Positions 1 to 32,415 of a stretch of 64,000 bases of DNA are shown here, piece after piece. The notes under the pieces are model-generated. The model made no database searches. It worked only from the letters and a program-made list of their open reading frames with translations, and had not been told where the DNA came from. Source of the stretch: Catajapyx aquilonaris (Eukaryota). The translations under genes were made by a program, and so were the position numbers. Location: contig KZ538551.1 of the NCBI GenBank assembly GCA_000934665.2, positions 62,001-126,000 of the forward strand, read 5' to 3'. Position 1 is the stretch's first letter. Each line of letters begins with the position of its first letter.

Positions 1-250
1 TTCATAACAATATGGAACAACACATGAGGGTTTGGCCTTTTATATTTTGAGCATAACTTTGCCTGCTAGTCGTCTCCACTCCAAAATGAGAGAGAATTAT
101 ATGCAAACCTGTAGGAAACCAAACCACACCCGCTGGCATTTACATTTATCTGGTACATTTATTCCACATAGAACAAGTCATAAATATATTTTACTCAACA
201 CGCATGTATTGTAAACATAATTCCATCTGAAACCTCTACTCACAGCCCAT

Positions 251-1279: not shown

Positions 1280-1389
1280 CGTCGTCGTCTGGTCGCCCTG
1301 CAACGTAATTATCATTAGAAAAGTACTGATGGAACCAGATGGAACTGTCAGCTATAAACTTAACGAATTAACATCATTACGCACATAAT

Positions 1390-1632
1390 GTATTGCATGT
1401 TATGTATTACATTACTATGTACACATTACATGTTATGTACTGTACAGCATGTATTACATGTTATGTACTGAGTACTGTACAGCATGTATTACATGTTATG
1501 TACTGAGTACTGTACAGCATGTATTACATGTTATGTACTGAGTACTGTACAGCATGTATTACATGTTATGTACAGTGACTTACATGTTATGTACAGCATG
1601 TGTTACATGCAGCATTATGTTATGTACAGTAT
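1390..1632. repeat. Minisatellite, ~35-bp unit (GTACTGTACAGCATGTATTACATGTTATGTACTGA), in the putative RNF26 first intron
   Basis: Three to four near-perfect tandem units with degenerate flanks, read directly. Confidence 0.9.
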
Positions 1633-2334
1633 TACAAGGTGCGGCCAAGGTGCTACATTATGTAGACTGAATACGACTGAAGGATCTTACACGACTGTTG
1701 GGATGTCCTTGCAAGAGGCGATGATGTTCAAGGCTTCTGCTGGTTCCGGGTGATGCAACTCGAGGGCAGTGTGTTGTTGGGACTCGACCAAGTTCTGCCC
1801 CTGGTCCGCCCCTGGGTCCGCCCCTAGAGCGGGCAAAGCCAGGCTTGAAGCCTTCGCATCGTTTTTGGATTCTTCTTTTTTTTTGTTATGCAAGATATGA
1901 AAGTTCGAATGCAGGGTTGCCAACATGTTAGCGTCAGCCTAACGTTCTCGCAGCTGTTGCCACATTTTAATCATATTCATATTTTAATTACATTTAATGA
2001 CAGCTACCATTGTTGGATAACCTTGTTGCGCTTTGAGGTCGCGTTTTCAAGAGGAGTCATGAAGCAGGGGAGCCAACAGAACCTGTTCAACCGCCAAGAT
2101 TCGAAATTATACGAATAACTACGTACCTCATTATCTTCCCTGGAAGTCTGCACACAGCCATTGTAATGTAATTACAAATAAATTAGACCAGTTGGAACCT
2201 GCCAGCTGCAACAGAACATGAATCAACAGTTCGACATGTACGAAGTAAGTGTTTTATTCAGAAGAAATCAAATCTTTCACAAACATTGATAGCTTAACTT
2301 CAATAAGGTACAAAATGAGGTCATAAACTCTTTT

Positions 2335-4896
2335 TTAAATTGGAGCGGGTGTGGGTACGTTTATGAGAGGCGAGTCCAGTACTTCAGTCGACGTCTGGCT
2401 TGCAGGTAGGGCTTGTATCTGCTCGTTTTGCTCCAGCAGTGATTTGTACAAGTCCTGTACAGACTCGCTGTGCTGTAACGCAACAATTAACAGGTCATTA
2501 CAAATTATATATTTTTTTGGAAACAATTCGGATATCTTATCGTCACTTGCAAGTACAGAAAAACACAATCATGAAATTATCCAAAAATTGAAAACATGAC
2601 CTTTGACTTTTATATCACTTTAATGGCATGTATTTATTTACTTACTTACGTACTTGTTTATTTTAAACTCTATGCTCACATGTAATATTTCAGACCATTA
2701 GAAATGGCATTGCAGACAAACCTGTGCGCCTGGCTGCAACGCTTTCATTAGAGTGTCCATCCTAGCTGGAGGCAGCTTCGCATGGACGTACCAAAGCAGC
2801 TTCAACAAGTGTGCAGTAACATTCTCCCTGGTCAAACCGGCAGAAAAAAACTCGTCGAACACTACGGTGCAAAAGTCCTCCGCCGCAAACTCTTCAGCGC
2901 ACGACGACACCAAGAGGGCGACCAGTGAGTGCAAGAACGGATCCTCGTATGCCCTTTCAGCCTCGCAACTGGCCAACACACCCAGAACCCGCATGAGTCC
3001 GACCCTGTCACGAGTCTTTGCCGTGTGCAGGGTGTAGTACATGGCCAGCGTACTGGCCACGCTGCTTTCCTGCACGTAGGCTTGGTACGCATCAGGTGGT
3101 GGGCCGGAGTGCTCGATAATTGTAAGAGCAGATTCCCGCTCATCAGGTGGCAACTTGCTGTTAGTGAGCCGTATCTGGTCATCAACCATCAACGAGACGA
3201 GAGCTGGAAGGAACTTGCTGACTATCTGGATGTTCAGCTTCGGCTCCTTGAATTCCTGTGAGTTGATCATTTCCCATGAGCCGAGTCCGAGAGACAGCAT
3301 TCGCAGGAGGAGGATCAGCACCGTATTTTCCTGCAAGATCAGACATTGCAAAGTGTTTGTCACAGAATGGAAGTTGAAATCCTTACCCTCGGTAGTCCCT
3401 CCAGGTTGATAAGATGCTGCAATATCTTCATGGCAGATGTTGCCAGGAAGTTGACGGCATATGGATCGCACAAGATCATCGAGAGGTCACCCAGCACTTG
3501 CTCCTGCCCTCGTTGGATGCTGTCCAGAAACCCTTGCAGCTCTCTGGACCGTTTAACGTCCACGTTCTTCTCCCGTACACATGCGTCCAGACACCAGGTG
3601 AACTTGTGGCATGGATCGACCGATATGATGTCTTGGACCTCCAGGTCATGAAGGGCCATCAGAAGCTCAGCTCGAAGTGTGCAATAGTGGATGTTACGTG
3701 TACGAAGGAACAATGTGCGGAGAAATTGCAGCACCATGTCATACAGCTTCACTTTCGAGCCGATCATATGGGCAAGCTTCTGGACCACCTCGCCTTGACG
3801 TCGCATCTGGAGATATAATCACATTAAGGTTTGTTAAAGTATTTTCACAGAGTATTGCTGACCTTAGGCGACGGGCTGAAGAACAGGTTGTTCAAATTCT
3901 CGTGGTTGAACAGTATAGCATCCTTATCCTTGACGTACTGGTTCAATAGAGGCGACACCTCGTCGCCGAACAGTGAGTGGTGGTCCTTCCAAATCTGGCG
4001 TTTAACCTCAGTGTCGCAGTCGTCGTACAGAGCCTTGTCGCTCACCTGCAACGTATCATTGCTGATTATGCCGTTTTTGTGCAATTTTAGCAACAATTTA
4101 CCAGCACTTTCAGGTACTTGTCTTCAATGTGGCTTATATTCTTGAGGATCCCCATCACCACCGGTCTCAACTGCTTCACCTTGATCACCGGGAAGCTCTT
4201 GACCAACAATTCCTTCAGCTTCTTGTCCTTATCTTTACTGTCGCTCTGTCCCAACTCTCCCACCTTCAGCACCAGCTTGTCCCTCAGCTCCTGCAATTAA
4301 AAAAAACAAATTAAACCCAATCATGAACTCAACATGTTACAACCGACTTTACCTCCATCACGGTTATGTGGAAGTCCAACCTCTGAATCGAATGAAGGTC
4401 AAGCAAGGGCAGCATCGGTCTCAGCGACGGCAACAGAATCCCATTTTCATGCTGAAATGTTGTGCAATATTAACCTGCGAACCACTACACACATCTCCAT
4501 CTCCATTACATAAAAGGCAAAGCTTGTTTGTCTGCCCATGGCAACAGTTTGTCCACGACAACGGTTTGCCTGTTTGTCTGCCCATGGCAACTACACTCAT
4601 CTCTACTTCTATCTCTATCATATAAAAGACAAAGCCTGTTTGTTTGTCCACGGCAACAGTTTGTCCATGACAACAGGATCACCATGGCAACGACGTGTAA
4701 AGAACAGGCTCTGCTGCTAGTTAATTATTCTTCAACTTTCAACAGGCCTTGAGTATGCGTAAAATATTTTCATATGCACCTGAAATTCCTCGATGGCTTT
4801 GAGCGGGTCGTTGCAGTTGGTCAGGGCGTCCCTGAGGTCATCCCTTCCTGGAATCCCAATCTCCTCCAGTCCAATGTCGCCCATAAGACCTGCCAT
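2335..4896 (-). CDS. NELFB: Negative elongation factor B (COBRA1), 7 coding exons: 4780-4896, 4353-4451, 4102-4290, 3863-4045, 3387-3806, 2722-3330, 2335-2472; 584 aa
   Basis: Recognisable segments ENGILLPSL, EVKRQIW, LFGDEVSPLL, LYDMVLQFLRTLFLRTRNIHYCTLRAELLM, VDPCHKFTWCLDAC, QEQVLGDLSMILCDP. All six introns are GT-AG and phase 0; the spliced frame is continuous (1755 nt). AATAAA on the minus strand near 2253-2258. Confidence 0.97.
4497..4720 (+). mobile_element. Non-autonomous Helitron-like repeat in a NELF-B intron
   Basis: ATAAAAG-AAAG-(GTTT)n head present twice, and a 3' end GAACAGGCTCTGCTGCTAG ending in CTAG. Related copies at 23169-23470, 34836-35050 and 38337-38438. Confidence 0.55.
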
Positions 4897-5055
4897 TTTT
4901 TTTTTCTTCCACAACTTCTGCAACATAAGATCAAAATGCAAAATGTCAATGGCACACACTCTGCCATTTTGCTGCATTAAAAAAACTGGTGTGCCACCAA
5001 ACTTACAGGTTCAGAACGTGCCCCTGATATCGTGCGACAAACCGTACCTGCTTAC

Positions 5056-5594
5056 ACCCAGCCAATTCGTCCAGAATTCGCCAAAACAGTGCAAAATATT
5101 CGCAAATTAATGGAAAAGATGACACCGAACCAGCGCCATCTTTGAATCCGAAGCTTCACGAACCGGCCGCTAGAGGCGTTATTCCTACAAAAATCATAAA
5201 ATATTTTAAACATATTTTGCCCCAATTTTAATAATTACTATTTAATTAGGATATGCATCAATGTTAATTAAGTACGCCCTTGTTTTAACTTGAAGCAACG
5301 TTGCCAATTTGCTGGCTCTGGAACAAAAATGGAACAATGGCAGCTTCACATGTTTTGAACTGTGGAAAAAAAAAAAAAGTGTGTTCGACTCACGGTTCTA
5401 CTGAAGGTTCTGCAGAACGCGGGTTAGAACCGGTTAGAACACCTAATGAAGAACAACCCTGGGTCAATTTAATGGAATGGTAGGTACCAGGTATGGCCAG
5501 ATGTGTAGGTATTGTCTTTCATGTCATGCGAATGGCCAATTCTAATTAGTAAGTCTAATAAGACCATGGCATTAATTACAGCGCATGAAGCAAG
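5056..5594. promoter_or_regulatory. Divergent promoter region between NELF-B (5' UTR exon, donor GTAAGC at 5055) and the TFIIB-like gene
   Basis: Head-to-head arrangement. YY1-type motif AAAGATGGCG on the minus strand at 5134-5143; CTCF-like CCGCTAGAGGCG at about 5167-5178. Confidence 0.55.
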
Positions 5595-8500
5595 ATGGAT
5601 GACGACACTATACACGACATATTGCTGCGGAAGAACCTGCCTGGGTGGGTCAAGCAGATCGTCGTGGAGAGCGGCTTGCTGAAGAATCGGCAGGAGTTGT
5701 ACGGCGTGGGCGGGGAGTACGTGGTGAGGTGGGTCAGGGTCGCTCAAGAATGGATGGCGCGGAGGAAGGCGGCAATGGAGGGTTGCCTGGATTTCAGGCA
5801 GTTGGCAGAGGCCGCTTTTCAGGCGGAGGAGCTGCCACGCTACCTGCCCATAATCGCGGCTACGGTGCAGGAAGTGTTGGAGGAATGTCCGCCACCCCCG
5901 CATGAGGTATGACGAGGGTGCCATATGTTAATAAATTAAAGAAAATTAATAGCTATTTATATTTGCAGGCACCGCAAGGGGATGATGACGTCATTTGCAT
6001 CGAGTCGTCTTGGATTCCCCGGGATGTTGAAATGGATGACGTGAGCAATTTCTTTGCGGCTAAACTGAACGTGTCTGAAAATCAACAGCCAGTGATTGAT
6101 GTCAATTCTCAAGGAGCAAATGGGTAAGTGCGGTGCAGCATTCAGGTGCACTGTACCCCCGATTATCCGAGCCGCACTGTTGTCGCCAGATAATCGTAAG
6201 ACATGGATAATTGGAAGATAGCTTAAAAATGAGCTCACCACTGGTTTTAAATGAATGACTGTACATACTGTATTCTGCTTTAAATAAGATTTAATAAAAG
6301 TTATTTAAATGTCCATAGATTTTTAGTTTGTATTCTGGAAAAAGTCTGTTACATTAATTTTCTTTGTTTGCAACAATTTTTGGGGGGCTTCACTTTGTTG
6401 TAGCCGTGCACAGATAATGCGTATCACGAATAACCCACACCCGGATAATCGGGAGTACAGTGTATTTCGTAACAGTTGCTCTGACCTTATGGATGGTAGT
6501 TGAAATATACAGGGTGGGCGTAAAGTCCCAGGACACCTGGCCTTTTTTTCCCTGCAAAACAAATCTGTGCATGGAAAATGTGTCGGAAATGCTGGTGTAA
6601 CATCTTCTGGACACTGACGGAACTGTTTGATGAGGGGAGACATCTGAGGACCCCCAACAACACCTATAAAAAGCATTTAGCAAGGGAAGTGTCTTTCACG
6701 CTTTCCGTCTTTCACATTTCCCATGCTGAATGCTTTTTTCTCCCACTCGTTCAAGTTACTTCTTCTCGGTGGGACCTTACCAAAAGGAGCCCTGACGATA
6801 TCCTGCATGATGTGCGTTATGTTCTTTCCCACATGAGGCCTCCCGTGGACCCACACAGTAGCCACAAGTCTCTCCTCCACAGTGAACCCGCTCGTATCTG
6901 CCATCTTGCACTGTTAACAGTGTTAACTTACTGTGGGTGTTGTTGGGGGTCCCCAGATGTCTCCCCTCATCAAACAGTTCCGTCAGTGTCCAGAATATGT
7001 CACACCAGCATCCCCGACACATTTTCCATGCGCAGATTTGTTTTGAAGGCAAAAAAAGCCAGGTGTCCTGGGACTTTTCGCCCACCCTGTACATAAAGCA
7101 AAGTATTGAAGAGTATTGGAGAAGATGGTATATGCCGATTTCATGTGGCCTGACCAGTCACCAGAGGGTTCATTGTATCGGTCAAAGAGATGGCCAGATC
7201 CATGTGTCTGGTTATTGCTGGCCACCCCTTAATGGGATCTAGGCCGTGATGAATTGTATGTACGTTGCAAATATAATTTTGGAATAATTGAATGGCCACA
7301 ACAACAATTTTCTTTTTAGGGTGCATGCAAGTCATTGGAGGTATGGTAAGTGAACCAGATTGTCCCACAAGCAATTTCGTCAAGTTTAAAAATATTTTTT
7401 GTTCCGTTTTGTAATTGGACTGAGGACATGGGAACATCAGTCTGCATTCAAAAATTATTGACTAGGATGCAGATTTAAATTGTGAGAAATGGCACAACTC
7501 AATTTGACCCGTTAATAATAATTGTTCCCATTTGCATGCTGTTCATGTATACCAGTCACAGGCTCGAAGACTAATTTGGTGCTTTCAGATCTGGAATGTG
7601 CCAGCATGTGACACCATCTGGCACCTATGATGACCCTATTATTCTATCATCCGATGATGAGCTGGAAGTAACTTCTCCACAGCCATACGAGTTGGAAGTA
7701 ACCTTTCTACAGCCAGACATTATTCCCTCAGGGAGCGTACCAACTGTAACACTTCCGCAGCCAGAGGTTGTTCTCTCAGTGAGCAGACCAACTGTAACCC
7801 TTCCGCAGCAGCCAGAAAGTGTTCCCTTGGTGAACATACTAACCGTAGCCCCTTTGCAGCGAGTAAGTCGTCCCTCAGCAACCAAGAAAAGGAAAAGGGT
7901 GACAGTACGTTCTTTGGCTTTTTACTTGATGGAATTTTCTTGCACGACTACTTGAGTTGTGAGACGTACGATAGACTGCTAGTTGACAATGATGGCACAA
8001 CTGCTGCAGAGAAATATGTAGTATGTAACAGAAGGCTGATCCCATTTCTAATTTTAGAAACCAACGGCGGCTCCTGAGATTGTTGAGACTCCTGATATAT
8101 ACTCGTACATACATAAATTTGGAGGCAGGATGAGGCTTTCAGGAGAAGTGGTTCGGAGAGCAATAGCCGTATGTCAGAAAACTAAAGGAATAGTACTTTT
8201 CCCAAGGAAAAAGGACTACAACGCTATGGCAGGTGCTTGCATCTACGTTGCATCTCGCTTGGAAAAACAGCAACGAACAATGATGGTAAGTACAGGCTAA
8301 GGTGCATATTTTACACTTTTGCCGGTCATCATGACATTATTTACTTCCTGGCATGTATGCTAATACGTGTATCACGCTTCCTTCGTTTGAGCATATCACA
8401 CGCATGATAGAAAAACCGCACGAATTTTTATTCTTACAGGAAATAGTTTCTGCATGTCAGCTACAGGGCAGGGGAAGGATACATCTCTACTTCATGAGGA

Positions 8501-9084
8501 TGAAGAAGCGTGGCATCGATGTTGGGGAAGCCATCAAATCTGTGGATTTAATCCCACACTTTTGCACAGAGCTACATTTCGAGGATAATGTCTCAGGAGC
8601 AGCCGTGTACATTGCTACCCGGGTTGACCAGTCTGGTGAAGTTGCTAAAGGAAGAGGGCCTGTAAGCGTGGCTGTTGCAGCCATATACACAGTTTTCAAG
8701 GTACATTATATGTTAAATATCCATGTGCAATGTCTAAAAATATTCATATGTAACAGCTTTTATTGCAAGGTGATGTCATGAACATGTTCATGAAGAACTG
8801 GCATGTTTACACATACTGAAGTGATTTTGTATTGCCCTGGTTAGTTGTGATCTTGCTACACTTACCACATTTTCTCTCCTCTCTTGCAGTCATTGAAGAG
8901 GTGTGATGATGCTCAGAAGATTGTCGCACATGCAGGCACAAAGGATTCTGTCATTAGGCCAATTTGGAAAGATGTAGTGGCCAAGGAAGAGTTGCTCTTC
9001 CCAAATGGCTATCTTCAGAAGCTTGCAGAGAGCCACGGAGCAGCAAAGAACCCCCACTCCCACTCAGCACAACTGGCAGGTTGA
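5595..9084 (+). CDS. Divergent TFIIB paralogue lacking the zinc ribbon; exons 5595-5906, 5969-6123, 7589-7904 (alternative donor after 7862), 8058-8285, 8440-8700, 8890-9084; ~488 aa
   Basis: All junctions are GT-AG and frame-compatible (1467 nt, no internal stop). Exons 4-6 align to the TFIIB core: YNAMAGACIYVASRLEKQQRTMM vs [37 protein letters not shown] vs [23 protein letters not shown] vs AGVADVTIR. The last two introns lie at the same positions and phase as in the neighbouring TFIIB. The link to exons 1-3 is inferred from splice phase only. Confidence 0.8.
6149..6462. mobile_element. pogo/Tigger-like MITE
   Basis: 21-bp TIRs with one mismatch: CACTGTACCCCCGATTATCCG (6149-6169) and CGGATAATCGGGAGTACAGTG (6442-6462), followed by TA. 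Confidence 0.7.
6510..7089. mobile_element. Tc1/mariner-type MITE with ~155-bp TIRs
   Basis: TA|CAGGGTGGGCG...CGCCCACCCTG|TA; arms 6510-6664 and 6936-7089 are near-complementary; TA target-site duplication. Confidence 0.9.
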
Positions 9085-9231
9085 TCCTAAGAATAAACAA
9101 TAATTATGGAGTATTCAGACACTACTAAAAGTAACGTTTTGTTGTGTGCAAAGGAGATTGGCCAAAAAAAAAAGGGTATTGATTACGACACTTATTTTCA
9201 ACTGAAGTTCTAAGTCAGAAGTGTAACATGT

Positions 9232-9382
9232 AAGCCGCTTTTACATGTGAGGGATGTTGCAACAATGACATATCGCTCAGCGAAAGTAACAATTGTGGTT
9301 ACAATAATATATTTTCACCCCAAACAATTTGTCTCATCGCTGCAACATCGCTGATCAAATCGCTCACATGTAAACGCGGCTT
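9232..9382. mobile_element. Small MITE (possibly PIF/Harbinger-like)
   Basis: 20-bp TIRs matching at 19/20: AAGCCGCTTTTACATGTGAG and CTCACATGTAAACGCGGCTT. Confidence 0.6.
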
Positions 9383-9665
9383 TGTACCTATATTTTTTTA
9401 AAGACTGGAAGCCTATTTGTAGCAGTGATGGGCACCATTCAATTCAAAGCTGAATCAGGCCACATTTGTCCAGTGAATTAAAAATAATTGGATGTGAACA
9501 GCAATGAGAATTGGAAAAATCTGAAGTGTGTAATGAATGGGACTGAATAAATTCAAAGGGAGACGTGGAGGGCTGAATAGTTGAAATACGTACGGAGCAG
9601 TGAATGATGCCCATCTCTACTTTTTTATCAATCTCATACAAAGAAAATGTGTAAAATGTACACCA

Positions 9666-9763
9666 GTGTACTATGGGCGCCAAAAGAATTGACCGGAGTT
9701 GATGGGCATATAGCGCCATTTACCCATCAACTCCGGTCAATTCTTTTGGCGCCCATAGTACAC
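9666..9763. repeat. Perfect 41-bp inverted repeat with a 16-nt loop (mini-MITE or hairpin)
   Basis: Arms 9666-9706 and 9723-9763 are exact reverse complements; internal TA|CTATGGGCGCCAAAAG termini. Confidence 0.9.
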
Positions 9764-9799
9764 AGAGCACATGGAGTCGTAATGGTAATAGGCCTACAT

Positions 9800-10300
9800 G
9801 CATTTTTCCTCCTTGGGTCATGTTAAGTCACTAATGATATTAAGTAAAGATGATCATGCAAAGTACATAACAAAAAAGGGGAATACAGAAGTATTCATGA
9901 TATAGTTCCCAAATTGCTGTCAATTAATTAAATTGTTTTCCATATAATTGTTTTGCCCTTAGATTTTAGATGCATTCATGTTTAATAATACGTGCTTTTT
10001 TCTACCAGGAACATGTTAATAAGTCACTAATGACATAAGACTGATCATGCAGAGTACAAAGTAATACGAAAGAGTTTCCAATGTTTCACCAATTGTCAAT
10101 TAATCGAAATGTAATTGTTCTGTCCTTGTTTTTAGATGCGTTCAGGTTTAATGGTGCTTTTTCCTCCCAGTGACATGTTAAGTCACTAACAACGTTAAGA
10201 AAGACTAGTCACGCAAAGTACAAACCAAAAAAGTGCAATGCAGAAGTATTCATAATATTTCCACAATTGCTGTCAATTAAATGTTTCTCATATAATTGCT
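9800..10300. repeat. Three degenerate tandem copies of a ~160-190-bp unit
   Basis: CATGTTAA(..)GTCACTAA...TCATGCAAAGTACA...TGTCAATTAA recurs at about 9819, 10012 and 10174. Confidence 0.75.
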
Positions 10301-10687
10301 GTAATTTGCATTATTTTAGCCTGCACTATTTATATGGCGTCGAGCATTTTATTTTCATAAGATGTATGCTCACTCATTAGATACAATCATGTACCTGAAT
10401 TGAATAAAATAATTTTTCAGCAATTAAGTGAAATTTTTGAATGACGTAGTTTGTCTAACCCACGCCAGATGGCAGCACTTTCCTGACAGGTGACACATCC
10501 TGGCACCAAAGCCCACCATTTTCTCCGAACTCGGGCCCGAGAAAAGATCAACACATCTGCAGCGACACCGCCATGGGCGCTGCAATTGTGGGCAATGCAT
10601 TGCATACGGATCCGCCCCGGGACACAGCGCCTCTTCTGGCCGAATAGTAAACGCATCTGAATTTACGCAATCCGTGGCCTACTTGTA

Positions 10688-10732
10688 TGACGTCACGATT
10701 GGAAAAATCGGGGTTTGATAAAATGGCCGCCG
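10688..10732 (+). promoter_or_regulatory. TFIIB proximal promoter motifs
   Basis: CRE palindrome TGACGTCA (10688-10695), inverted CCAAT box ATTGG (10698-10702), and YY1-type AAAATGGCCGCC overlapping the start codon. Confidence 0.55.
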
Positions 10733-13331
10733 TCGGCAGGTAATTTCTGAATCGAACGCTTCGAAAAATCCGGATTTGGACCCGGTTCTGGCCTCGTTTG
10801 GGTCTGGAAATGGTCGGGGGTCGGGCACGGGCGGGTCTAGCCACCAGGGGCGGCCAGTGGGCTGCCCCGGGGGCCACGGGCGGGCTGGGAAATGGGGAGG
10901 GGGAGTTCCAAAAGTTGTGAAATATTAATTTTGTTCTATTATTTAATGCTGCATATGAATTTATGTTGCAGCCGTGACACCCCGAAGGTATGCTGCTATG
11001 CCCACCCGGATGCACCGCTGATTGAGGACTACAGGGCCGGAGACCAGATTTGTTCCGAGTGCGGACTTGTCGTTGGGGACAGGTGCGTACCGCAGTTACA
11101 GCCTTTTACGACATGTAACGCAACTGTACTTGTAGGGTAATAGATGTGGGGTCTGAATGGAGGACTTTCAACAATGAGAAGAACAACGCGGATCCATCTC
11201 GTGTTGGCGGGCCTGAAAACCCTCTTCTCAATGGATCTGATTTGTCCACCATGATTGGGCCCGGGAGAGGAAACGCTTCGTTCGATGACTTTGGGGTGTC
11301 CAAGTACCAGAACAGGAGATCGGTAAGTTCGTTTACAGCTTGAGCGTACGTATGTATTGCGCTGTTTCGTTGATTCCAGATGAACAGCTCGGATCGTGCG
11401 CTGGTTAATGCATTCCGAGAGATCAGCAGCATGTCTGACCGGATTAACTTGCCCAAGACAATAATCGACAGGGCCAGCAACTTGTTTAAGATGGTGCATG
11501 ACGGGCGGAACCTGAAGGGCCGCAGTAACGATGCCATCGCCACCGCATGCCTCTACATTGCCTGCAGACAGGAAGGGGTTCCACGCACTTTTAAGGTAAC
11601 GCCCTGAGTAAGAATCGCGATCGGTACTTGACGGCCTGATTATTTGCAGGAGATCTGTGCTGTGAGTAAGATCAGCAAGAAGGAGATTGGCCGCTGCTTC
11701 AAGCTGATCCTGAAGGCGCTTGACACAAGCGTGGACCTTATCACCACTGGGGACTTCATGTCTCGTTTCTGCTCCAATCTTGGCCTGCCTCCAATGGTCC
11801 AGAGGGCAGCCACGCACATTGCCAAAAAGGCAGTCGACCTCGACATTGTACCAGGGAGATCGCCCATATCAGTGGCCGCTGCCGCAATATACATGGCATC
11901 GCAGGTATGGACCACACAGTTACGCTGGGGGGGGGAATAGGATGCAATAATGAGTCAACCCACGTAAGAACAGTTTCGAACAGAGGATTCATGACAAATA
12001 AACAAAGTCATTGTCATTTCTGATGAATCCTTTATTCCAAACTTACTAGTGTGTTAGGTGGCAAAAGTTTCTGGCCTATGCTCCAGGGTTGATGGAAATT
12101 AAACCACGGTAGTGTCATAAATGGACAAGTTTGTGCTCGCAAATTGAGTCACACACTTGAATAAACAACTTCAGTCAGACATGCTGCACCATTTCACATA
12201 GTATTGAAAGTCAAGTACGGAAAGGAAGGAATTACATCCAGTGCTATCAAACAGGAACTGTGGCTTCGAAAAGAATGACCATCCACCATGAGGTGATACC
12301 TGGCCCTCAGTGGCTGTTACTTGTTTTCAAATCTCAAAAAATACCTTCCAGATATATAGAAAAAATGAAAATTAATATAGTGCAGAAAACTAAACGATGA
12401 CAAGACTTCGTCACGTGTACTCCTATTGTTGCATGAGAACAAAGCGATGGCAGCAGATCGTAATTTCGTTTTCCGAACTGTAGTTGCAGGAGGCATTTCC
12501 AGACAAAACTTGGAACGATTTTTCCAACGGTATTGTTTGTTTAATTATTCGGAGATGTAAGGAATGTGTTGTAGTATGAGATGACAATACTGAAAAATGA
12601 TACTGTTGTTTTATATCCGTCACACCTTGAACACAGTCAGCCGGAAACTTTTGGTTCCTACCTTGTATTTCAAATGCAATGTTAATGTGTCATAATAGTT
12701 GCAATTTAATTATATTCACATTGTAATCATACTGAACCCTCTATATCAAAAACCAGTTTTAAATATTATTCAAAAGAAATTATTAATGATAATCGTCATA
12801 AACTAGAATTAACGCAATCTTTCTAAACAAAATGGGCAGCACTGGTGTAGTGGTTAGCGCCACATACTTCCACCTCTGAGGTCCCAAGTTAGATCTCTGG
12901 ATCGGACAGAGGATACTTCTGTGGATAGAGTTCCGATGGGTTCTCTCCATGTTCGCATGGGTTTTCTCGGGACTCCCGTTTCCTTTCACTATCAAAATCC
13001 ATCACAGAGCAGGCAGTGATTAAAGTCGGTTCACGAAAAGATGATCCCCTAAGAGGCTCAAGGAGGCCTGTCACGGGGTATCCATTATTATGACTTTGTA
13101 AACATATGCCATTTTTGTCAGTTGACAATCGCATAACACTGTCCGATTTTAATACCAATGTAATTTCAGGCGTCGGAGGACAAGCGGACACAGAAGGAAA
13201 TCGGTGACATCGCAGGCGTGGCTGATGTCACGATCCGCCAGTCGTACAAGCTCATGTATCCAAAGGCTGCAGATCTGTTCCCGGAAGACTTCAAGTTCGC
13301 AACGCCACTGGAACAGTTGCCTCAAATGTAG
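10723..13331 (+). CDS. GTF2B: Transcription initiation factor IIB; exons 10723-10739, 10972-11082, 11136-11322, 11380-11595, 11650-11904, 13170-13331; 315 aa
   Basis: Zinc ribbon (CYAHPD...[22 protein letters not shown]), B-reader/linker (DPSRVG), both cyclin repeats and HTH ([17 protein letters not shown]). All introns are GT-AG; 948-nt continuous frame. Confidence 0.99.
12834..13000 (+). mobile_element. tRNA-derived SINE with a V-SINE-like core, in TFIIB intron 5
   Basis: A box TGGTGTAGTGG (12843-12853) and degenerate B box GTTAGATC, then TGTGGA...GTTCTCTCCATGTTCGCATGGGTTTTCTCGGGACTCCCGTTTCCT, resembling the V-SINE central domain. Confidence 0.7.
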
Positions 13332-13724
13332 TGTGTTTAAAAAGAGTGTGCACAAACACTTTTTTTTTCCATTTCTATGCATAATATTAATGGTGTAATA
13401 ATGGGAATTGCACTGTGTCAATTTTTACAGTATTTCTAAGGGTTTGGTCAAATTTATTAAGATCTGAAGAGAGTCTTTTGCTCTGTGGGCTTTTGGATGG
13501 ATTACGCAGTTTTTTATATATAAAAAATTGTTGGTTGACTGGAAGACAATTTTAGGGTTTAGTTACATGTGTTGACTAGTTGTACTTTCATTTCGGGCAC
13601 TGTATCACTTGTGGGGGGGGGCGCAACATAATAATAACTTGTTGTTAAAGTACATGTCCATTTGTTTCACACTCATTTTACCTGCATTCATATCCGTTTT
13701 TGATCCTTCAAAAATGTAAAAAGT

Positions 13725-13960
13725 CCGAATTTGGCGATCCGAATATTTATAGTCTTCCGAACGTGTGCAATTCACCGAATTTGGCGTCGACTTTGAGCAG
13801 CGAGATCGAATGAGATTGACTTTTCGTGAGTTTTTAAATTAATTTTTCTGACTACCCAATGTATTTCTAGATTGTAATTTGCTGTACTTGTTTGCAGTGG
13901 AGGGGCGGATTTGCTGGCAGACAAGGTGAAGAAACGTCAGGTCTTGCTGCCTGTTGGCGG
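13725..13960 (+). pseudogene. Degenerate copy A of URM1 exons 1-2
   Basis: TTGGCGTCGACTTTG (start ATG changed to TTG at 13781), TGACTTTTC|GTGAGT donor, same intron 1 end, and an exon 2 copy from 13898 reading GGADLLADKVKKRQVLLP. Confidence 0.9.
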
Positions 13961-14003
13961 CAGTTTGGTTGACTTGACTTGACCGAGTTTAACTGATGCT
14001 TTT

Positions 14004-14151
14004 GTATCAACAGTCCAAAAAGAATTGTCCCGTCGCGTCGAGCGGGCAGCCACGCGTCAGGATGAAAGGAATCTTGAAACTGGTTCCTTTCATCCTGACG
14101 CGTGGCTGCCCGCTCGACGCGATGGGACAATTCTTTTAGAACTGTTGATAC
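14004..14151. repeat. Near-perfect 68-bp inverted repeat with a 12-nt loop (MITE-like hairpin) near the duplication junction
   Basis: Arms 14004-14071 and 14084-14151 are complementary with only a few mismatches; TA-flanked TCAACAGT...ACTGTTGA ends. Confidence 0.9.
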
Positions 14152-14164
14152 CATTTACCCTCTT

Positions 14165-14402
14165 TCCAATCAGATGGACAGAGCAGAACATGGCCTATAG
14201 AACGTGCTCCTATAGAGAAGGAATTATGCAGTCTGTACATGATGGCTTGATTATTCGCAGGAGATCTGCGCCGTGAGTAGCCACCATGAGGGTGGCGCTG
14301 CGGACAGGCTGATCCTCAAGGTTCTCAACATAAGTTTCATGACTTATTTTTTGCTCCAATCTTGGCTCGCCTCCGATGGTCCAGCCAGGCACATTGCCAA
14401 AA
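14165..14402 (+). pseudogene. Decayed TFIIB fragment (exon 4 acceptor, intron 4 end, deleted exon 5)
   Basis: TGATTATTCGCAG|GAGATCTGCGCCGTGAGT...GCTGATCCTCAAGG...TGCTCCAATCTTGGC...CACATTGCCAAAA is collinear with 11637-11828 but carries frameshifting deletions. Confidence 0.85.
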
Positions 14403-14417
14403 ATGAAAAAAAGAAAA

Positions 14418-14665
14418 GCAAATTCAAATTTGGTGCCATAATTTCAGATTATTTGGCGACCTGTTCAATAGTTGTCATTTGGCTGAATTTCATGCAATTC
14501 GCTCCTCAAATTTGGAGACTTTTCGTGAGTGTTTCTTTCTTCAGTTTTTTCTAGTTACCAAGAGTGTATTTCTCGATTGTAATTAGCTGTACTTGTTTGC
14601 AGAGGAGGGGCCGAATTTCTGGTCGACAAGGTGAAGAAACATGTCAGGCCTCGCTGCCTGCAGAA
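14418..14665 (+). pseudogene. Degenerate copy B of the URM1 promoter and exons 1-2
   Basis: AATTCAAATTTGGTGCC...TAGTTGTCA matches 17664-17726. The ATG is lost; the GTGAGT donor and TTTGCAG acceptor are kept; the exon 2 copy from 14603 reads GGAEFLVDKVKKH. Confidence 0.9.
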
Positions 14666-14729
14666 GTCCGATTGGTTGATGTTGCCGAGAGTTGCTTTGT
14701 GACCATTTCCCCCTCTTTTTCCCATTCAG

Positions 14730-17336
14730 ATGAGCAGCTCGAATCCTCGCCTGGCTAATGCTTTACAAGCAATGACCAGCGTGGCCGATCATATCAACCT
14801 GCCCAAGGCAACAGTCGACAGGGCCGGACACTTGTTTAGGACCGTGCGATTCAAGCATCGCACCAAAGACGCAATCGCATTCGCATGCCTTTACCTTGCC
14901 TGCAGACAGGACCACGTCCCCTGCAGCCTTCATGTAAGGCTAATTATGCGTAAAAGTATACAACGGGGTCACATTTAATAATAAATAGCATTAAATATAG
15001 GTATTTATAACTAATAAATTATTGTTTGTCATGTGTAAATCACTCATGGAATTAGCTCCTGGAGAAGAGCTAGTGCAATTGATGGCCTGATTATCATTGC
15101 AGGAGATCTGCGCTGTGAGTAGGATCGACAGGAAGGAGATTGGCCGCTTCTACAAGCTGATCATGAAGGCTCTCAACATCAGCGTGGACCAGGTGAACAC
15201 TGGGGACTTCATCGCTCGATTCTGCTCCAATCTGGGCCTGCCTTTGATGGTCCAAAGGGCCGCCACACACATTGCCGAAAAGGCAGTTGAACTCGGCATT
15301 GATTTCCACTCGAGATGGCCCACAACAGTGGCCGCCGCTGCAATATACATGGCATCGCAGGTATGGATCACATGGTTGTGCTGGGAGGGTACAATTTAAT
15401 ACCAGTGTTAATTGCAGGCTGATGTATCTGTAAGCTTAATTGGGGATGTTGTACCAAGTAATGATGGTTGTGGGGATATTGTTAAGGAGAAAGGGGGCAA
15501 CACCAAAGTCTAACTGGTTGGGCTACGTACCGGCAAGGACGAACCGCAGGGGTTTACGAAGCCTGCGTGAATTACAAATGCATTAACTTACCAAAATCAA
15601 GATAGTTTCAGTGGTTGAAGGGTGCAGGAGGACTGATGACATGAAGATCGAATGGAATTTATTCATACGAACATGATAGAGTTATCGTATCTAAGACAAA
15701 TTCAATAATATTTGATGGTTGGCAACAACAGTCATAATCGAGTCACTCAATTGTTGACGCCTAAGGAGGATACCGTGGAAACTGAATGAAATATAATAAC
15801 AAGTTGAATGAATGAAATGGTTATTTAATAATAATGTAATGAAAATAAGGTAAAGCATATATTTATTTAAGCAGTTAGCGTACGTAATTCCGCATAAGGT
15901 GTAGAGATGATATTTACACAAAATAATATTCTAAATCATGTGTGACTATTGTCACACGTGGATTCCAGTTGCACGCATTGCTGCTCATAATGAATTATTC
16001 ACTTATAATTTTATTTCGGGGTTCTATTACGTCCTTGGGTTTTTTGTGTAGGGGATCGGGCACTGCAGCACGTCGGGCCGGATACGTGTTCAAAATATGA
16101 AGGCTGTACTTGCAACGGGTTTTGAGATATGCTTGACAGAAAAACTCGTCTCAACAAGAACAAGGAAAATTTTCATTGTTGTTTTTGCACGAGGATCTTA
16201 CTTATAGGGACTATCATCAAGTGGGCCTTTAAAATTATTAAATATTCCAATGGAGTCTCACACTCCAACGTGCGTGAAAATAACATGACATACATGATCA
16301 ATAGCTGTAAATAAGACCAGGATTCCGAAATATGGTTTTCCTGATGACCGCCATTTTTATGAATTAATTACGCGCTAATGAGAGCCTAAAAACTTGGGGT
16401 CTGGGGCGTTTTACGTTCAGGAAGGGATGTAGTATCAGCACCGTAAATGGCATCTTCTCCGCCAAAAGTGAAATATTCCGTCACTATTTCGGACGTTCCG
16501 ACCCCACTACAAGTAAGTTTTCTAGAAATAAGGACTTATCTTCTGCCTGTAGGTTGTCTGTCTATTCTCACGTTATGGTTCCTTCACTTATGTATGGTAG
16601 TGAAGCGTGGGTCTGGTCAGATATGCATAAGAGTAGGGTGTTGGCTACAGAGATGCGTTATCTCCGGGCTGTTTGTGGGGTTACCAAGTTGGATAGGATT
16701 AGGAATGAGGAGATTTTGGAGAGGTGAGGTTAAAGATAAGGTGTGTAGGTCTACTCTGAGGTGGTTTGGCCATGTGGAGAGGATGAAGGAGGAGGAGATT
16801 GTGAAGAAGGTTAATTTGGGTGGAGTAGTTGGTAAGAGGGGCAAGGGTAGGCCTAGGAAGACATGGTTGGACCAGGTGGGCCAGTGTCTTAAGGGTGTTG
16901 CTAGTGTTAAGCCGAGACGTTCATGTGTCAATAGGACCATGGACGTGGCTGAGGCTAGGGTTGTTTGTTTGGATAGGTGTAAATGGCGTAGGTTAACTAA
17001 TGGGTAAATATGTCTGAGGATAAGGTGATGTCTGAGGTGGGGGGTGGGACAGGTTGTTTTTAGGTTTATTCTCATAAGTTTTATTAGTTCATATGTTGGG
17101 TTAGCTTGCATCTCCCTTCATCGCTGACTACCCCTCATAGGGAAATGTCGTGATGTTGTTGTTGTTAATTGCAGGCGTCTGAAGACAAGCGGACACGGAA
17201 GGAAATCTGTTACGTCGTTGGCTTGTATGACGTCTCTATCTGCCCTTTGTACAAGCTCATGTATCAGAAGGCTGTAGATCTGTTCCCGGATGACTTCAAG
17301 TTTGCGACGCCTTTGGAACAGTTGCCTAAAGCATAG
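14730..17336 (+). CDS. Core-only TFIIB paralogue; exons 14730-14933, 15103-15360, 17175-17336; 207 aa (could be a young pseudogene)
   Basis: Copies of TFIIB exons 4-6 with intact splice sites, only in-frame length changes (-12, +3, 0 nt) and a stop at the homologous position. The ATG is the first codon of the exon 4 copy. Confidence 0.65.
15420..17162 (+). mobile_element. Truncated RTE-clade LINE insertion (probably with deleted or nested interior) with a 14-bp TSD
   Basis: RTE C-terminal motifs YGSEAW...[22 protein letters not shown], then after a frameshift [10 protein letters not shown]...[12 protein letters not shown] (about 16590-17007). (TGT)n tail; TGTTAATTGCAGGC repeated at 15406-15419 and 17163-17176. 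Confidence 0.85.
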
Positions 17337-17777
17337 TATTAAAGAGAGAGTGCACATTTATGTATCACAATTGCACAACAACAACAACAACAACTTTTTT
17401 TTCGTTTTTTCGTTTTAAATATGGCGTAACAATAAGTGGCCCTACGCCAAGAACTAATAACTACCGGTATTAGCTCTTGCCCACGCTTGTTACACCATAT
17501 TTGCTGGCAATCCCACCCCAAATATTATTTGGGGTGAGATTGCCAGTTCTTACAGTATTACCGAGTTTGGTCAATTATGCAGATAAATAATGACAATGTC
17601 AAAGTACACGTTCAGTATGGTTTCATTTCACCCCCATTCATACCCTAATTAAATTATCTAGCGAATTCAAATTTGGTGCCGAAATTTCAGAATAGCTTTA
17701 GTTGGTGACATGTTCAGTAGTTGTCAGTTGCCTGAATATGTGTACCATGTCATTCATCACGTGCTCTCAAATCCAAT

Positions 17778-19878
17778 ATGGCGTCGACTTTGGGCCTCGA
17801 AGTTGACTTTTCGTGAGTGTTTTCCTTCAATTTTTTCTCATTACCAAGTACATTTATGGACTGTAATTAGCTGTACTTGTTTGCAGCGGAGGGGCCGAAC
17901 TGCTGTTCGATAAAGTGAAGAAACACCAGGTCTCGCTGCCCCTAGACGACCAAAAACAATGTGAGTCATGCCCCTGACAAATGGTCATGAACGTTTCCTT
18001 TTGCTGCTGAAAATATTAATTAAAATATCGGATTATATTTAATTGCGTTAAGTTAACTATTGCATTACATTTCATTGAATTAATTGCGTGAAATTAGATT
18101 ACTTACTATGTTAAATTTAATTTCATTGAATTAATTATATGAAATTACACTACTTACAATGTTAAATTAATTCCAATACGGTTATTCCAATATTAAATTA
18201 AACCATATCAAATTACATGCCACATTACATTATTTACAATGCTACATTAAATTCAATTACATAATTAAAATATTACATGAAATTCCATTGCATTTATTAC
18301 AATATTGAAATAAATGTTAAAATAAACAACATTAAATTACATGTTACATGACATTACAAGACAAATTAAATTATTGCATAAAATTAATTACATTTATTAA
18401 AATAATAAATTAAGCACAGTTGTAAAGGAAATAATGCGGTCCTGCCTTGTATGTCATGATAACTCGAGATTAAGTTTGCCATACTTTTCAGCTCTAAAAT
18501 CTGTGTTAGCTAGCTATTAGCGCAAAAATGGGATCCTCTGACTGCCACAACTTTCCAGCGAGCTGTTAGTAATGCCATCACTCCGCCTAATCACGTTTGA
18601 TGTCACCGGAACCATCCTACGCTTTCGGAAGAATCCGGCTGACCAGTATGCGGAGACGGCTGCCGCATTTGGCCTCGTTGCCGATCGCAGTCTAATGTTA
18701 TCCAGCTTCAAGTCAAGCTTCAAGAGAATTAATGAGCAGCACCCTTGCTATGGGGCGTTGACCAGCTTGGCTTGGGAGGACTGGTGGCGCAAAGTGGTCC
18801 TGGGCACGTTTCATGGTGCAGGGGTCGAAGGTCAGGCGTTGGGCGAGGTGGCCCAACGTTTGATCAAGTTTTATCACACCTCAGATGCTTGGGAGGTGTG
18901 CCCCGGGGCTCGTGAGATACTAGAAAAGTCACGGAAACATCGGCTTGAGGTTGGGGCGTTGTCCAACTTTGACCCGAGTTTGGACCCGCTTTTGGGCACT
19001 ATGGGAATCAGACAGTTGTTTGATTTTGTAGTCACGTCGCATGAAACTAAGTGCGCCAAACCAGGCTCAGCCATTTTTATAGCCGCATTAAACAAGTCGA
19101 AGTTTAATCTCAAGCCATCAGAGGCTGTTCATGTTGGCGACAACTACGAACTGGACTTTTTAGGTGCCAAAAAGGCAGGGTGGCAAGCACTGCTGGTTAG
19201 TCAGAACGTACCTGATGGAATTTCTAGTGAGCACCAGAAGTTTGTCTTTCCCTCACTGCAAGAGCTGTCCGCACACTTGTTCAGGTTGGGGATCCCATTT
19301 TTGCGATACACAGGTCGAAAGCTAGAATTTTACAGTTGTATTTGCTTGTTTCAGGGACAATTCAGCACTTACTGGTGTGGATTAAGGACAATCTGTTGCG
19401 GCAGAGGCCGGAATTGTTCATCAAAGGTGATTCGGTGTAAGTGTTAGCTGCGGAATCTTCTAAAAACATGCGATTAATACTAGGAAAACTTGTATCTTTT
19501 TTTCCCTGAAAATCTGGTCAACTCTTGGGTATTGTTGTTGCCAAGGTTTTTTTATTGAATCAGATTCCAATGTACACAAATGGGTTGGAAATATATTAAT
19601 TTACATACAGGGTTTTTATCGCTGTGTGTTGTATTCACACATTATGAAGTTCAACTTGTGCACAATGTTGTTGTTAATAAAATGTCTGCTATTGTTGCGT
19701 AGGAGGCCTGGAATACTTGTGCTGGTGAATGATTGCGACTGGGAATTGATGGTGAGTAGTTACCTGTGCATTGAAGGGATTTGCAATTAACAGATTTAAA
19801 TCGTTTCAGGGCAATTTGGATTACGAGCTCAAAGAAGGTGACAAGATATCGTTTATATCGACTCTACACGGAGGATGA
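17778..19878 (+). CDS. URM1: Ubiquitin-related modifier 1; exons 17778-17812, 17887-17960, 19355-19436, 19703-19751, 19810-19878; 102 aa
   Basis: Spliced product [102 protein letters not shown], with the URM1 signatures GGAELLF, RPGILVL.ND.DWEL and ISTLHGG. Missed by the ORF track because the exons are short. Confidence 0.98.
18521..19305 (+). promoter_or_regulatory. 16-bp perfect inverted repeat pair bracketing the HDHD3 exon (candidate long-range pre-mRNA stem)
   Basis: CGCAAAAATGGGATCC (18521-18536) and GGATCCCATTTTTGCG (19290-19305). Confidence 0.65.
18572..19385 (+). CDS. HDHD3: HAD-like hydrolase (HDHD3/Reg-2 type) nested in URM1 intron 2; likely exon 18559-19284 spliced to 19355 (stop 19383-19385); the unspliced ORF runs to 19447
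   Basis: HAD motifs LITFDVTGT (I), LSNFD (II), KPGSAIF (III), [18 protein letters not shown] (IV). CAG|GTTGGG donor at 19284/19285, where recognisable similarity ends. Confidence 0.9.
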
Positions 19879-21875
19879 GTCAGCATTTATTTTGTATCAG
19901 GGAATAATAATATTGTAATTCACATAATCTGCGGATACAATAATAATATAAAAAAGTGTGAGAACCCACAGCTTGCGATTTTTTTTCATCCTCGGTGACA
20001 ATTCCAACCTGTTCTTAAATGGTCCAGTGAACTCGTGTTTCTTTTCAACTCTTCATGAGGTTAGAACCATGTCCCCTTTGGCAGGGAAAACTTCCCTTCA
20101 AGTTTTGTGTTAAACTTCTGCAAACTTTATGAGCCTACTTGACAGATTTCCCAGGGGGTATTCCAGAGAAGAAGGAAGGAGCAGTCAGTGGAAAACAGGG
20201 ATCTCTCGCTGTACCGAGGAAAAAGAAGAAGAAGCACTAGTTAGCATTTCTAGTACAGTTATACTTTTCTTCACACCGAGGATAACAACAATGTGTGGAG
20301 GAAAAATATATATTTTCTGTTCCCTCGGGGTCCATCGCGTAGTGATAAATGAGGATCCATGATGGATTGACGTGCCTCGAGACAGAGAAGTCGAAGCAAA
20401 AGGGGCTGGTGATTAGAGGCTGGCTGGCCTCAGCAAATATGCTCCGATGCAGGGGGCTGGCTGCTGCCATGACGACGCCGACGACGCCATCCGTCTTGTC
20501 TCTTTCTCTCTGAAGTCTCCACAATAGCCTCCTACGATTTCCTTCAACCTGTGTGATCCAGATAAACAATTTTAAGTCGCTTCGGAACAAATTATTATTT
20601 TGATGTATTAATAAAAAATTTTTGAACATAACTCTGTGCATAAGGGGATGTAGGAGGGGCGGCCTTTTCTTTATCGACGTCGATATACCGAGGGGTTGAC
20701 TCCCTTGACATTTATGATCTTCGACGCCCGATATTTTTACTCTCGAAAGGTTTGAGAGAACTTCAGGCGCCTTTTTTGTATTCATTTAGCAGCCATATTT
20801 TCCACACCTGATTTAAGTGCTTCTGATCCTATTTTTTTTTGTACTGAGATTGTATATGACAAAAATATCATCTACATGGCGACTAAAGTCTGGATTGCAT
20901 TGTTAGCTGCCAGAACAAGAGCATTAAAAATTGATGCTCCATAATAGGAGACTCACCAACTGTGATGGTTTTGCTGTGTAGCTAATGCTCTAGATGGCCT
21001 ACAGTTTTCAGGATAATTCTATTATTGGACGACCTACTTTTGATTAGTACATTGAACAAACAGATCAGTAACCCTGGGGGTGCAGTGTCGTCAAGGAAAT
21101 GGAGAGAGCCGTTCTTTATTATTATTATTATTAGCGGCGGATAAGATTTGGTGCTCGTAGATTAATCACGTGCTGCTGTATACGTGCAGGGCTTGTCAAA
21201 AACTGGCAGCAAAATCCTTTTTTCCTCTCCAAAAAATAAGAAGAAGAGGAGAATGCAAAGAAGAGCAAAATGGGATCCCTGTATAAGAAAGGGAAAGGCG
21301 CGTCCTTTTCAAATCTCCCTTGTCTCCCGCGATGTGCGGAGAAAAGGAAGGGGACAACAAAAGGAGGAAAAAGCCGAGCAGACGCCTTCGTGTCAGACCT
21401 TATCACCAAGAGAAGCAACCCAAAGGCCCGACCCTCCCTTCCACATCCTTCATCACACCTGATGACGCTGTAACTTAAAGACGTGAGACTCGTCTTTCCG
21501 GAACCGGCTCACTAATGCAAAGAGTGGGGCCGGTTCTGGAACGGGTCCGGTTTCTCGACTGCAGTGTTATCTGTGCCTATAACCTGGAGGTGGAGACGCT
21601 GCATTGTTTGCAGGCTTTTGTCCCCCCTAGGGAGGCGAAGAAATCCGCAAATCCGTCCATGTCCCCAGAGGCACACTGCTACTGCAATGCAGGCCTATTG
21701 TTATCTCCTGCCCTTAATGAATGCAAGTGACTCCTGACGAGAATGGTTGAGTCTGCCTTCGACTTTCCTTGAGCCTCCAAATTGGCGGAAACTCTACAGT
21801 TTCTGATTCGCTTATCTTTAAACCCAAGGAATCGAGGAGAGAGAAACCCCCCCTCCCAGTTTATATCAGTCCCAT

Positions 21876-32340: not shown

Positions 32341-32415
32341 TCAAGCACTGATGTCCTCACACAGTTCTTGCTATCTTAAAACCACAAGAATTGCGTTTGG
32401 ACAATCAAAGCTTGA
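32341..32415 (-). ncRNA. mir-219: pre-miR-219 hairpin; mature 5p UGAUUGUCCAAACGCAAUUCUUG at 32385-32407, 3p arm 32347-32368
   Basis: Exact match to the bilaterian miR-219 mature sequence as I know it. The arms pair around a ~14-nt loop, with a basal stem TCAAGC/GCTTGA, apical UGUG, and a CNNC (CAAC) 16 nt after the 3p end. Confidence 0.97.

Follow-up and report, generated by a model that had tools for sequence, protein, structure and literature searches.

In the cholinergic locus, the intronless VAChT gene lies in the first intron of ChAT on the same strand and shares the upstream non-coding exon(s) of its host, and in CDKN2A an exon common to INK4a and ARF is translated in two frames, with unrelated proteins as products. 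Among insects, the Su(var)3-9/eIF-2gamma gene pair has reportedly been described by Krauss et al. in 2006. Passages of the FlyBase survey of exceptional gene models treat same-strand nesting as too ordinary to flag, count 10 pairs and one triplet of distinct Drosophila melanogaster genes that share promoter, first exon and start codon, with Su(var)3-9 in an intron of eIF-2gamma as the model case, and record 18 gene pairs with an exon region read in two frames, the overlaps being mostly shorter than 40 nucleotides (nt); in the same passages, 26 of the 36 genes with multiphase exons are placed on polycistronic transcripts (PMC4528330). Here we describe a locus in a 64,000-nt stretch of Catajapyx aquilonaris DNA (contig KZ538551.1, positions 62,001 to 126,000; hereafter the window, in whose own numbering all positions are given), where the gene for URM1 on the forward strand (17778-19878) carries in its second intron an open reading frame (ORF) for a HAD-family hydrolase of the REG-2/HDHD3 type. 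The explanation that we favour, with about even confidence, is a same-strand nested pair in which URM1 is the host of an expressed and intact HAD gene that would use its own ATG and end within URM1 exon 3 in a different frame.

VAChT, unlike the HAD ORF, shares no coding sequence with its host, and in CDKN2A the two frames arise through alternative first exons and not through a nested gene. With Su(var)3-9/eIF-2gamma the locus has in common a housekeeping gene that carries an unrelated gene in one of its introns, in the same orientation, and two functionally unrelated proteins from one locus; if URM1 exon 1 were spliced to the HAD exon and the latter to exon 3, a shared promoter, start codon and N-terminal residues would add to the likeness. 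However, first-exon sharing is documented for that insect pair and comprises 80 residues, against a would-be 11 here, and a nested gene that ends in a host exon in another frame is not mentioned for it in the relevant passages of PMC4528330. As in the FlyBase multiphase exons, one exon stretch would serve two genes in different frames on the same strand, with an overlap of 31 nt in the spliced form of the HAD message; the overlap differs from those cases in arising from a nested gene that has no stop of its own, and its HAD side is predicted. Ordinary same-strand nested genes, as portrayed in parts of PMC4528330 and PMC5174743, likewise consist of a short gene within a host intron, but such a gene has its own stop and 3' end, whereas HAD has neither before the next exon of its host. 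The locus would be a member of known insect kinds, its less usual trait being a nested gene without a stop of its own.

The host gene is made up of the following parts, in which the Pfam Urm1 profile is PF09138 and X1 is the RNA run introduced below.

17778-17812, + strand, URM1 exon 1: begins with the ATG, 35 nt, ends in phase 2, donor TTC/GTGAGT
17887-17960, + strand, URM1 exon 2: 74 nt, ends in phase 1, matches positions 8-30 of the Pfam Urm1 profile
19355-19436, + strand, URM1 exon 3: matches profile positions 32-56
19437-19702, + strand, URM1 intron 3: contains the AATAAA at 19676 and the TAG at 19445-19447 that stops the unspliced HAD frame
19703-19751, + strand, URM1 exon 4: its joint with exon 3 (19436-19703) is present in an X1 contig
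19810-19878, + strand, URM1 exon 5: ends in GG and a stop, matches profile positions 75-96

URM1 is a ubiquitin-related sulfur carrier and modifier that acts in tRNA thiolation and urmylation, and its C-terminal Gly-Gly serves thiocarboxylation and conjugation. The coding exons sum to 309 nt and encode 102 amino acids (aa) that end in HGG, with the stop at 19876-19878. Scanned singly against PF09138, exons 2, 3 and 5 score 15.5, 20.3 and 29.2 bits (cut-off 21.8), the peptide of exons 1 and 2 scores 23.4 bits over profile positions 2-29, and the exons are collinear with successive parts of the profile. All four introns, of 74, 1394, 266 and 58 nt, are of the GT..AG type; the 74-nt intron 1 has strong splice sites (GTGAGT...TTGTTTGCAG), and the ATG stands in a favourable context (A at -3, G at +4). 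URM1 from exons 1-5 is most likely the main product of the locus. The exon coordinates of the initial annotation hold apart from minor corrections of exon ends, and its placement of a HAD hydrolase inside intron 2 on the same strand was confirmed both by reading of the sequence and by script.

From stop to stop, the HAD ORF spans 18542-19447 on the + strand, beginning within the 1394 nt of intron 2, and has its own ATG at 18572. Three features within or beside it are used throughout.

18572-19282, + strand, HAD coding part, REG-2/HDHD3-type: starts at its own ATG and has 237 codons before the putative donor
18559-19284, + strand, putative 'H' exon: 726 nt (3 x 242), with the HAD frame open throughout
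19285-19354, + strand, the 70 nt between the H exon and URM1 exon 3: a small intron (GTTGGG...TTTCAG) or coding read-through

The ORF scores 77.8 bits (1.9e-21) against PF00702 and 197.5 bits against TIGR02252, the REG-2-like family IA profile (cut-off 155.2), which it matches over its full length (1-203 of 203), and the domain is not interrupted by an intron. Among 499 candidates, 40 relatives were found at E<=0.001; the best identity is 41%, and those relatives that carry a name in their source are all called REG-2 or HDHD3. An alignment (A1) was made of 28 rows, namely the window ORF and 27 of the 40 relatives, leaving aside the near-duplicate Lepidoptera rows P0012 and P0015-P0017 and the nine weakest rows P0032-P0040. 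The window ORF retains every one of the 20 columns that are invariant in A1, including D20, T24, S141, N142, D144, K173, P174, G199 and D205, which we take to hold the HAD catalytic roles, and the motifs of the family are present (an N-terminal FDVT.T with the nucleophile Asp, the SNFD loop, K-P, and G-D...D). Judged by its sequence, the ORF is an intact REG-2/HDHD3-type gene, with a phosphatase activity that is predicted solely from family membership. Its own ATG coincides with the start position of the relatives in A1 and puts 4 residues ahead of the [KR]LITFD motif, a spacing shared by P0002 and P0027, and inspection by eye found a URM1-like N-terminal peptide in none of the 27 aligned relatives.

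The RNA evidence comes from one small run, X1, whose kind is unrecorded and which was available as contigs placed on 16800-20800. The run holds 0.25 of the sampled words and was judged RNA-like solely from its GT..AG joints; its depths, taken from the contigs of this single small run, are rough. A 188-nt contig at depth 48.7 contains the joints 17960-19355 and 19436-19703, each across a GT..AG intron, and shows the splicing of URM1 exons 2, 3 and 4; the exon 2-exon 3 and exon 3-exon 4 joints are those covered, with exon 1-exon 2 and exon 4-exon 5 lying outside the coverage. Over the HAD ORF a 461-nt contig (18718-19178, one differing letter) has a depth of 4.8, and depth is 0 over the remaining ~1 kb of intron 2. 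The body of HAD is transcribed, at about one-tenth of the URM1 contig depth. Another contig, of 230 nt (19409-19638, depth 2.2), passes unspliced from exon 3 into intron 3. Exon 1, 18006-18675 and 19212-19345 have no X1 contig over them.

What sets the HAD ORF apart from an ordinary nested gene is its 3' end. The HAD frame contains no stop codon before URM1 exon 3, and remains open across the entire exon to 19447. Neither AATAAA nor ATTAAA was found between the HAD ORF and exon 3, or within 420 nt after the URM1 stop; the single AATAAA within 19200-20300 is at 19676-19681, in URM1 intron 3 and 21 nt before the exon 4 acceptor. A GT-rich run comes after this AATAAA. Since HAD has no stop of its own before exon 3, any translatable HAD mRNA must extend into this exon and read it outside the URM1 frame, and from the reading frames part of exon 3 must be dual-coding whatever happens to the 70 nt that precede it, as had been claimed at the outset.

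The fate of these 70 nt decides how the protein would end. If they are spliced out, HAD from its own ATG would be 247 aa long and stop at the TAA 19383-19385, with 31 nt (19355-19385) read in two frames; counted from the URM1 ATG, the same joint gives the 263 aa of the initial annotation, whose junction of the donor after 19284 to exon 3 in another frame was reproduced by script. If they are read through, the whole of exon 3 would be in the HAD frame, and the product would have 291 aa with intron 3 retained (TAG stop 19445-19447) or 288 aa with exons 3 and 4 spliced, the stop then lying across the exon 3/exon 4 joint. The relatives in A1 end 0-15 residues past the last helix, and the 9-residue tail predicted for the spliced form looks more natural in this respect than the 54-residue Cys-rich tail of the read-through form. 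Short introns of the neighbourhood are usually 52-74 nt long, so that an intron of 70 nt is plausible in size. For comparison of splice sites, eight local donors were used, four from URM1 and four from the NELF-B gene of the window (the latter placed by eye, with a fifth NELF-B gap left unresolved); all eight have A at +4 and seven have a purine at +3. A consensus-like donor inside the HAD ORF (19224-19234), CTA/GTGAGC with the cut after 19226, was rejected as the site of the main form, since the stretch beyond it lines up with the last helix, which is conserved in the relatives. This donor shares the phase of URM1 exon 2, and joined to exon 3 it would give an in-frame fusion of 284 aa, consisting of HAD residues 1-218 and URM1 residues 37-102; GTRAG occurs twice in the H exon, which is about the chance expectation.

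At the other end of the HAD message, two features of intron 2 come into play.

17990-18440, strand not assigned, AT-rich block within intron 2, made of degenerate tandem repeats: periods of 51, 31, 22 and 17 nt
18537-18558, + strand, putative acceptor region: CTGAC at 18538-18542, a pyrimidine-rich tract, and AG at 18557-18558

We rank a transcript start of its own within intron 2 first among the possible 5' ends of HAD, a joint of exon 1 to H second, and a joint of exons 1 and 2 to H third. In the nested pair that we favour, the HAD transcript would start inside URM1 intron 2, the more likely of its 5' ends, and would most likely be translated from the ATG at 18572; it would continue into URM1 exon 3 and finish translation there in the different frame, and its 3' end may lie at the AATAAA at 19676 in intron 3 or be that of the shared last exons of URM1. 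The initial annotation had instead joined exon 1, which ends in phase 2, to the acceptor at 18559, and had noted that this joint is in frame. The script bears this out; a joint of exon 2 (17960) to the same acceptor breaks the frame. From the upstream in-frame stop to the HAD ATG there are, however, three AG dinucleotides, which with two candidate donors make six combinations, and two of the six are in frame, where chance predicts 1 in 3 for each. The in-frame joint was rejected on this count as evidence for a shared start, and a promoter and start codon common to HAD and URM1 would be the less probable arrangement. If the splicing of exons 1 and 2 comes first, an mRNA of exons 1, 2 and H is the natural product.

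Several observations weigh against the nested pair that we favour. A credible acceptor, with the branch-like CTGAC, the pyrimidine-rich tract and the AG, lies 13 nt upstream of the HAD ATG, and its position suggests that something is spliced onto the H exon. The earlier description placed HAD behind AT-rich sequence with no evident promoter; the strict initiator motif (Inr, TCAKTY) and TATAWA are both absent from the 611 nt ahead of the HAD ATG; by comparison, three strict Inr motifs occur in the 441 nt upstream of URM1. Four ATGs are found in the 160 nt that precede the HAD ATG, and one of them, at 18528, begins a short ORF that runs to the TAG at 18567-18569 and would burden a long unspliced leader. 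The GTTGGG donor after 19284, which the 247-aa form needs, is weak and departs at +4 from all eight local donors. Finally, the contigs of X1, one small run of unrecorded kind, reveal neither the 5' end nor any junction of HAD.

HAD might instead be an alternative product of the URM1 transcript, as in the initial annotation: exon 1, with the promoter and ATG of URM1 and its 11 codons, would be spliced to 18559, exon 2 would be skipped and exon 3 would follow H in another frame, with a 263-aa phosphatase that has a URM1-derived N-terminus as the result. The joint is in frame and the H exon, at 726 nt, is symmetric; a branch-like site, pyrimidine tract and AG stand directly before the HAD ATG, the 611 nt upstream lack a strict core-promoter motif, and the 3' end has to be shared in any case, as HAD itself lacks both a stop and a poly(A) signal. 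The arrangement is on record in insects, with the 10 pairs and one triplet of D. melanogaster given in passages of PMC4528330, and the HAD to URM1 depth of about 1:10 is compatible with a minor isoform. Nevertheless, we regard this arrangement as possible but unlikely. The in-frame joint is a 1-in-3 event, and two in six is what chance predicts; intron 1, with its 74 nt and strong sites, should let the joining of exons 1 and 2 win before the H exon has been transcribed; the ancestral HAD ATG is retained at its usual position, and a URM1-like N-terminus occurs in none of the 27 aligned relatives. The absence of URM1 exons beside HAD in all 12 related loci from metagenome contigs points the same way, as a weak test, and the GTTGGG donor is weak. 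The order of splicing is respected if exons 1 and 2 are joined to H in a message of bicistronic type, which would require a single alternative choice (exon 2 to H and not to exon 3) and which agrees with the fast removal of intron 1. The joint of exon 2 to 18559 being out of frame, this mRNA would open with an ORF of 39 codons, comprising the URM1 N-terminus and 3 further residues up to the TAG at 18567-18569, and translation of HAD would depend on reinitiation or leaky scanning. Among the exceptional gene models of D. melanogaster, dicistronic and polycistronic transcripts form an established category, according to passages of PMC4528330, and the short ORF stops 2 nt before the HAD ATG. Yet the X1 contigs contain no junction read for it, and the good context of the URM1 ATG (A at -3, G at +4) should make leaky scanning poor. 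A gap of 2 nt between stop and start is, moreover, very short for reinitiation, and we consider a message of this type rather improbable.

The lack of an own stop, of a poly(A) signal and of a recognisable promoter would also be expected if the HAD ORF were a recently inserted, inert or decaying copy, and the RNA over it URM1 precursor or intron debris; a flanking inverted repeat, like those of transposon-borne inserts, and decayed duplicates of URM1 and TFIIB nearby would fit such an origin. Against this, 237 codons are open, all 20 invariant columns are kept, the score lies above the TIGR02252 cut-off, and the depth of 4.8 over the ORF contrasts with 0 over the other ~1 kb of intron 2, which together make an inert copy very improbable. 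Still further down the scale, and hardly to be expected at all, is that the acceptor at 18558/18559 serves as a spliced-leader trans-splice site, as in the operons of nematodes and tunicates, in which case HAD would receive a capped 5' end of its own out of a precursor. An acceptor 13 nt before an ATG, without an obvious partner donor, is typical of trans-spliced genes; however, the window contains no Rfam match to a spliced-leader RNA, its sole match at the gathering score being mir-219, and its NELF-B exon is closest to insects. Among the best 120 of the 269 matches at E<=0.001 to this 262-aa exon, identity is 72-76% for named insects, 69% for chelicerates and 66-67% for crustaceans. Hexapods, to which the arthropod source of the window probably belongs, are not known to use spliced-leader trans-splicing, and the mechanism was rejected on grounds of taxon.

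The H exon is closely bracketed by an inverted repeat of 19 nt.

18518-18536, + strand, left arm of the inverted repeat: contains the ATG 18528; 22 nt separate the arm from the acceptor
19290-19308, + strand, right arm of the inverted repeat: begins 6 nt after the putative donor

The arms have one mismatch (16 nt are perfect), and the sequence is unique within the window to its two exact copies; with up to 3 mismatches allowed, three matches are present in the window against 0.74 expected. The repeat forms the closing stem in both the minimum free energy and the centroid fold of 18440-19360 (z = -2.7), and none of 20 shuffled sequences folded as well. Perfect inverted repeats of at least 16 nt within 2 kb are, however, frequent in the window (142 seeds, 15 pairs), and because they are so common the weight given to this repeat is tempered and it is treated as a lead only. 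Pairing of the arms could loop the H exon out of the URM1 precursor, or could favour its back-splicing, and a circle of 726 nt would have no stop in the HAD frame; the repeat could also simply be the scar or terminal repeat of an insertion that brought the HAD gene. One can further imagine HAD as a cassette without promoter, stop or poly(A) signal, run from the URM1 promoter by alternative splicing and terminated within exon 3 in a second frame, with pairing of the repeat setting the choice between URM1 and HAD or giving the 726-nt circle. In such a cassette, the paired repeat would hold the exon, its branch site and its donor in a loop, with URM1 being favoured, or alternatively would bring donor and acceptor together, with the back-spliced 726-nt circle as the outcome. 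We think a cassette of this kind rather doubtful and improbable as a whole.

If HAD truly depends on exon 3 of URM1, and possibly on its promoter, the two genes would be locked together, and neither exon 3 nor the HAD tail could change freely. Annotation pipelines would be prone to drop, to truncate or wrongly to fuse one of the two genes at such a locus. The nested pair would add a case from outside Drosophila to the few insect loci whose shared exons yield two unrelated proteins, and would offer a compact system of 2.1 kb for the question of how a same-strand nested gene avoids truncating the transcript of its host. Nothing found in this analysis indicates a functional link between URM1 and the phosphatase, and a search of the literature found no paper that links URM1 with HDHD3 or Reg-2 (rhythmically expressed gene 2).

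Conservation of the arrangement was examined in 12 related HAD loci on metagenome contigs, none of which had URM1 exons beside HAD (tblastn, best E 1.3); these loci are mostly short, with at least 2 kb on both sides in 5 of the 12, and their taxa are unknown, so that the test is a weak one. The protein collection contains no close relative, the best identities being 41% for HAD and 76% for NELF-B.

The surroundings of the locus contain further copies of URM1. Two decayed versions of exon 1, intron 1 and exon 2 lie at 13778-13951 and 14417-14658, with 76% identity to 17775-17940 and 71% identity to 17660-17940, respectively. In one of the copies TTG replaces the ATG and 10 nt are inserted, and in the other most of exon 1 is gone and exon 2 carries a 2-nt insertion; the exon 2 donor is lost in both, and the 3' end of intron 1 with its acceptor is better kept than the exons. 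Pieces of TFIIB recur in the same region, at 8335-13354, 14703-15399 and 17166-17356, with Pfam matches as follows.

8335-8778, 13164-13328 and 15091-15396, Pfam TFIIB repeats

The piece at 17166-17356, just upstream of URM1, is a diverged last exon of TFIIB that is 81% identical to 13161-13354 and gives no Pfam score. The pattern of copies suggests tandem duplication of a TFIIB-URM1 segment, whose copies would be decaying in different parts.

Between the TFIIB-like exon and URM1 there is a near-perfect palindrome (17504-17546; 21-nt arms, 1-nt spacer, 95% complementary). An ORF fragment at 16368-17007 (+), inside the second TFIIB-like copy, presumably resembles the reverse transcriptases of non-LTR retrotransposons in their C-terminal part; its scanned portion, 16368-16724, gave no Pfam match. 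At 16934-17201 the X1 contigs have high depth and many loose ends, as a repeat would give. Elsewhere in the window, a mir-219 precursor at 32341-32415 (-) matches Rfam RF00251 with 65.1 bits (gathering score 54.5), the window's sole Rfam match at that level. The NELF-B gene occupies 2698-4896 (-), with introns of 52-62 nt and its 262-aa exon at 2698-3486, and a multi-pass membrane protein with a terminal C3HC4 RING finger (PF13920, 2.5e-12) is encoded at 254-907 (-).

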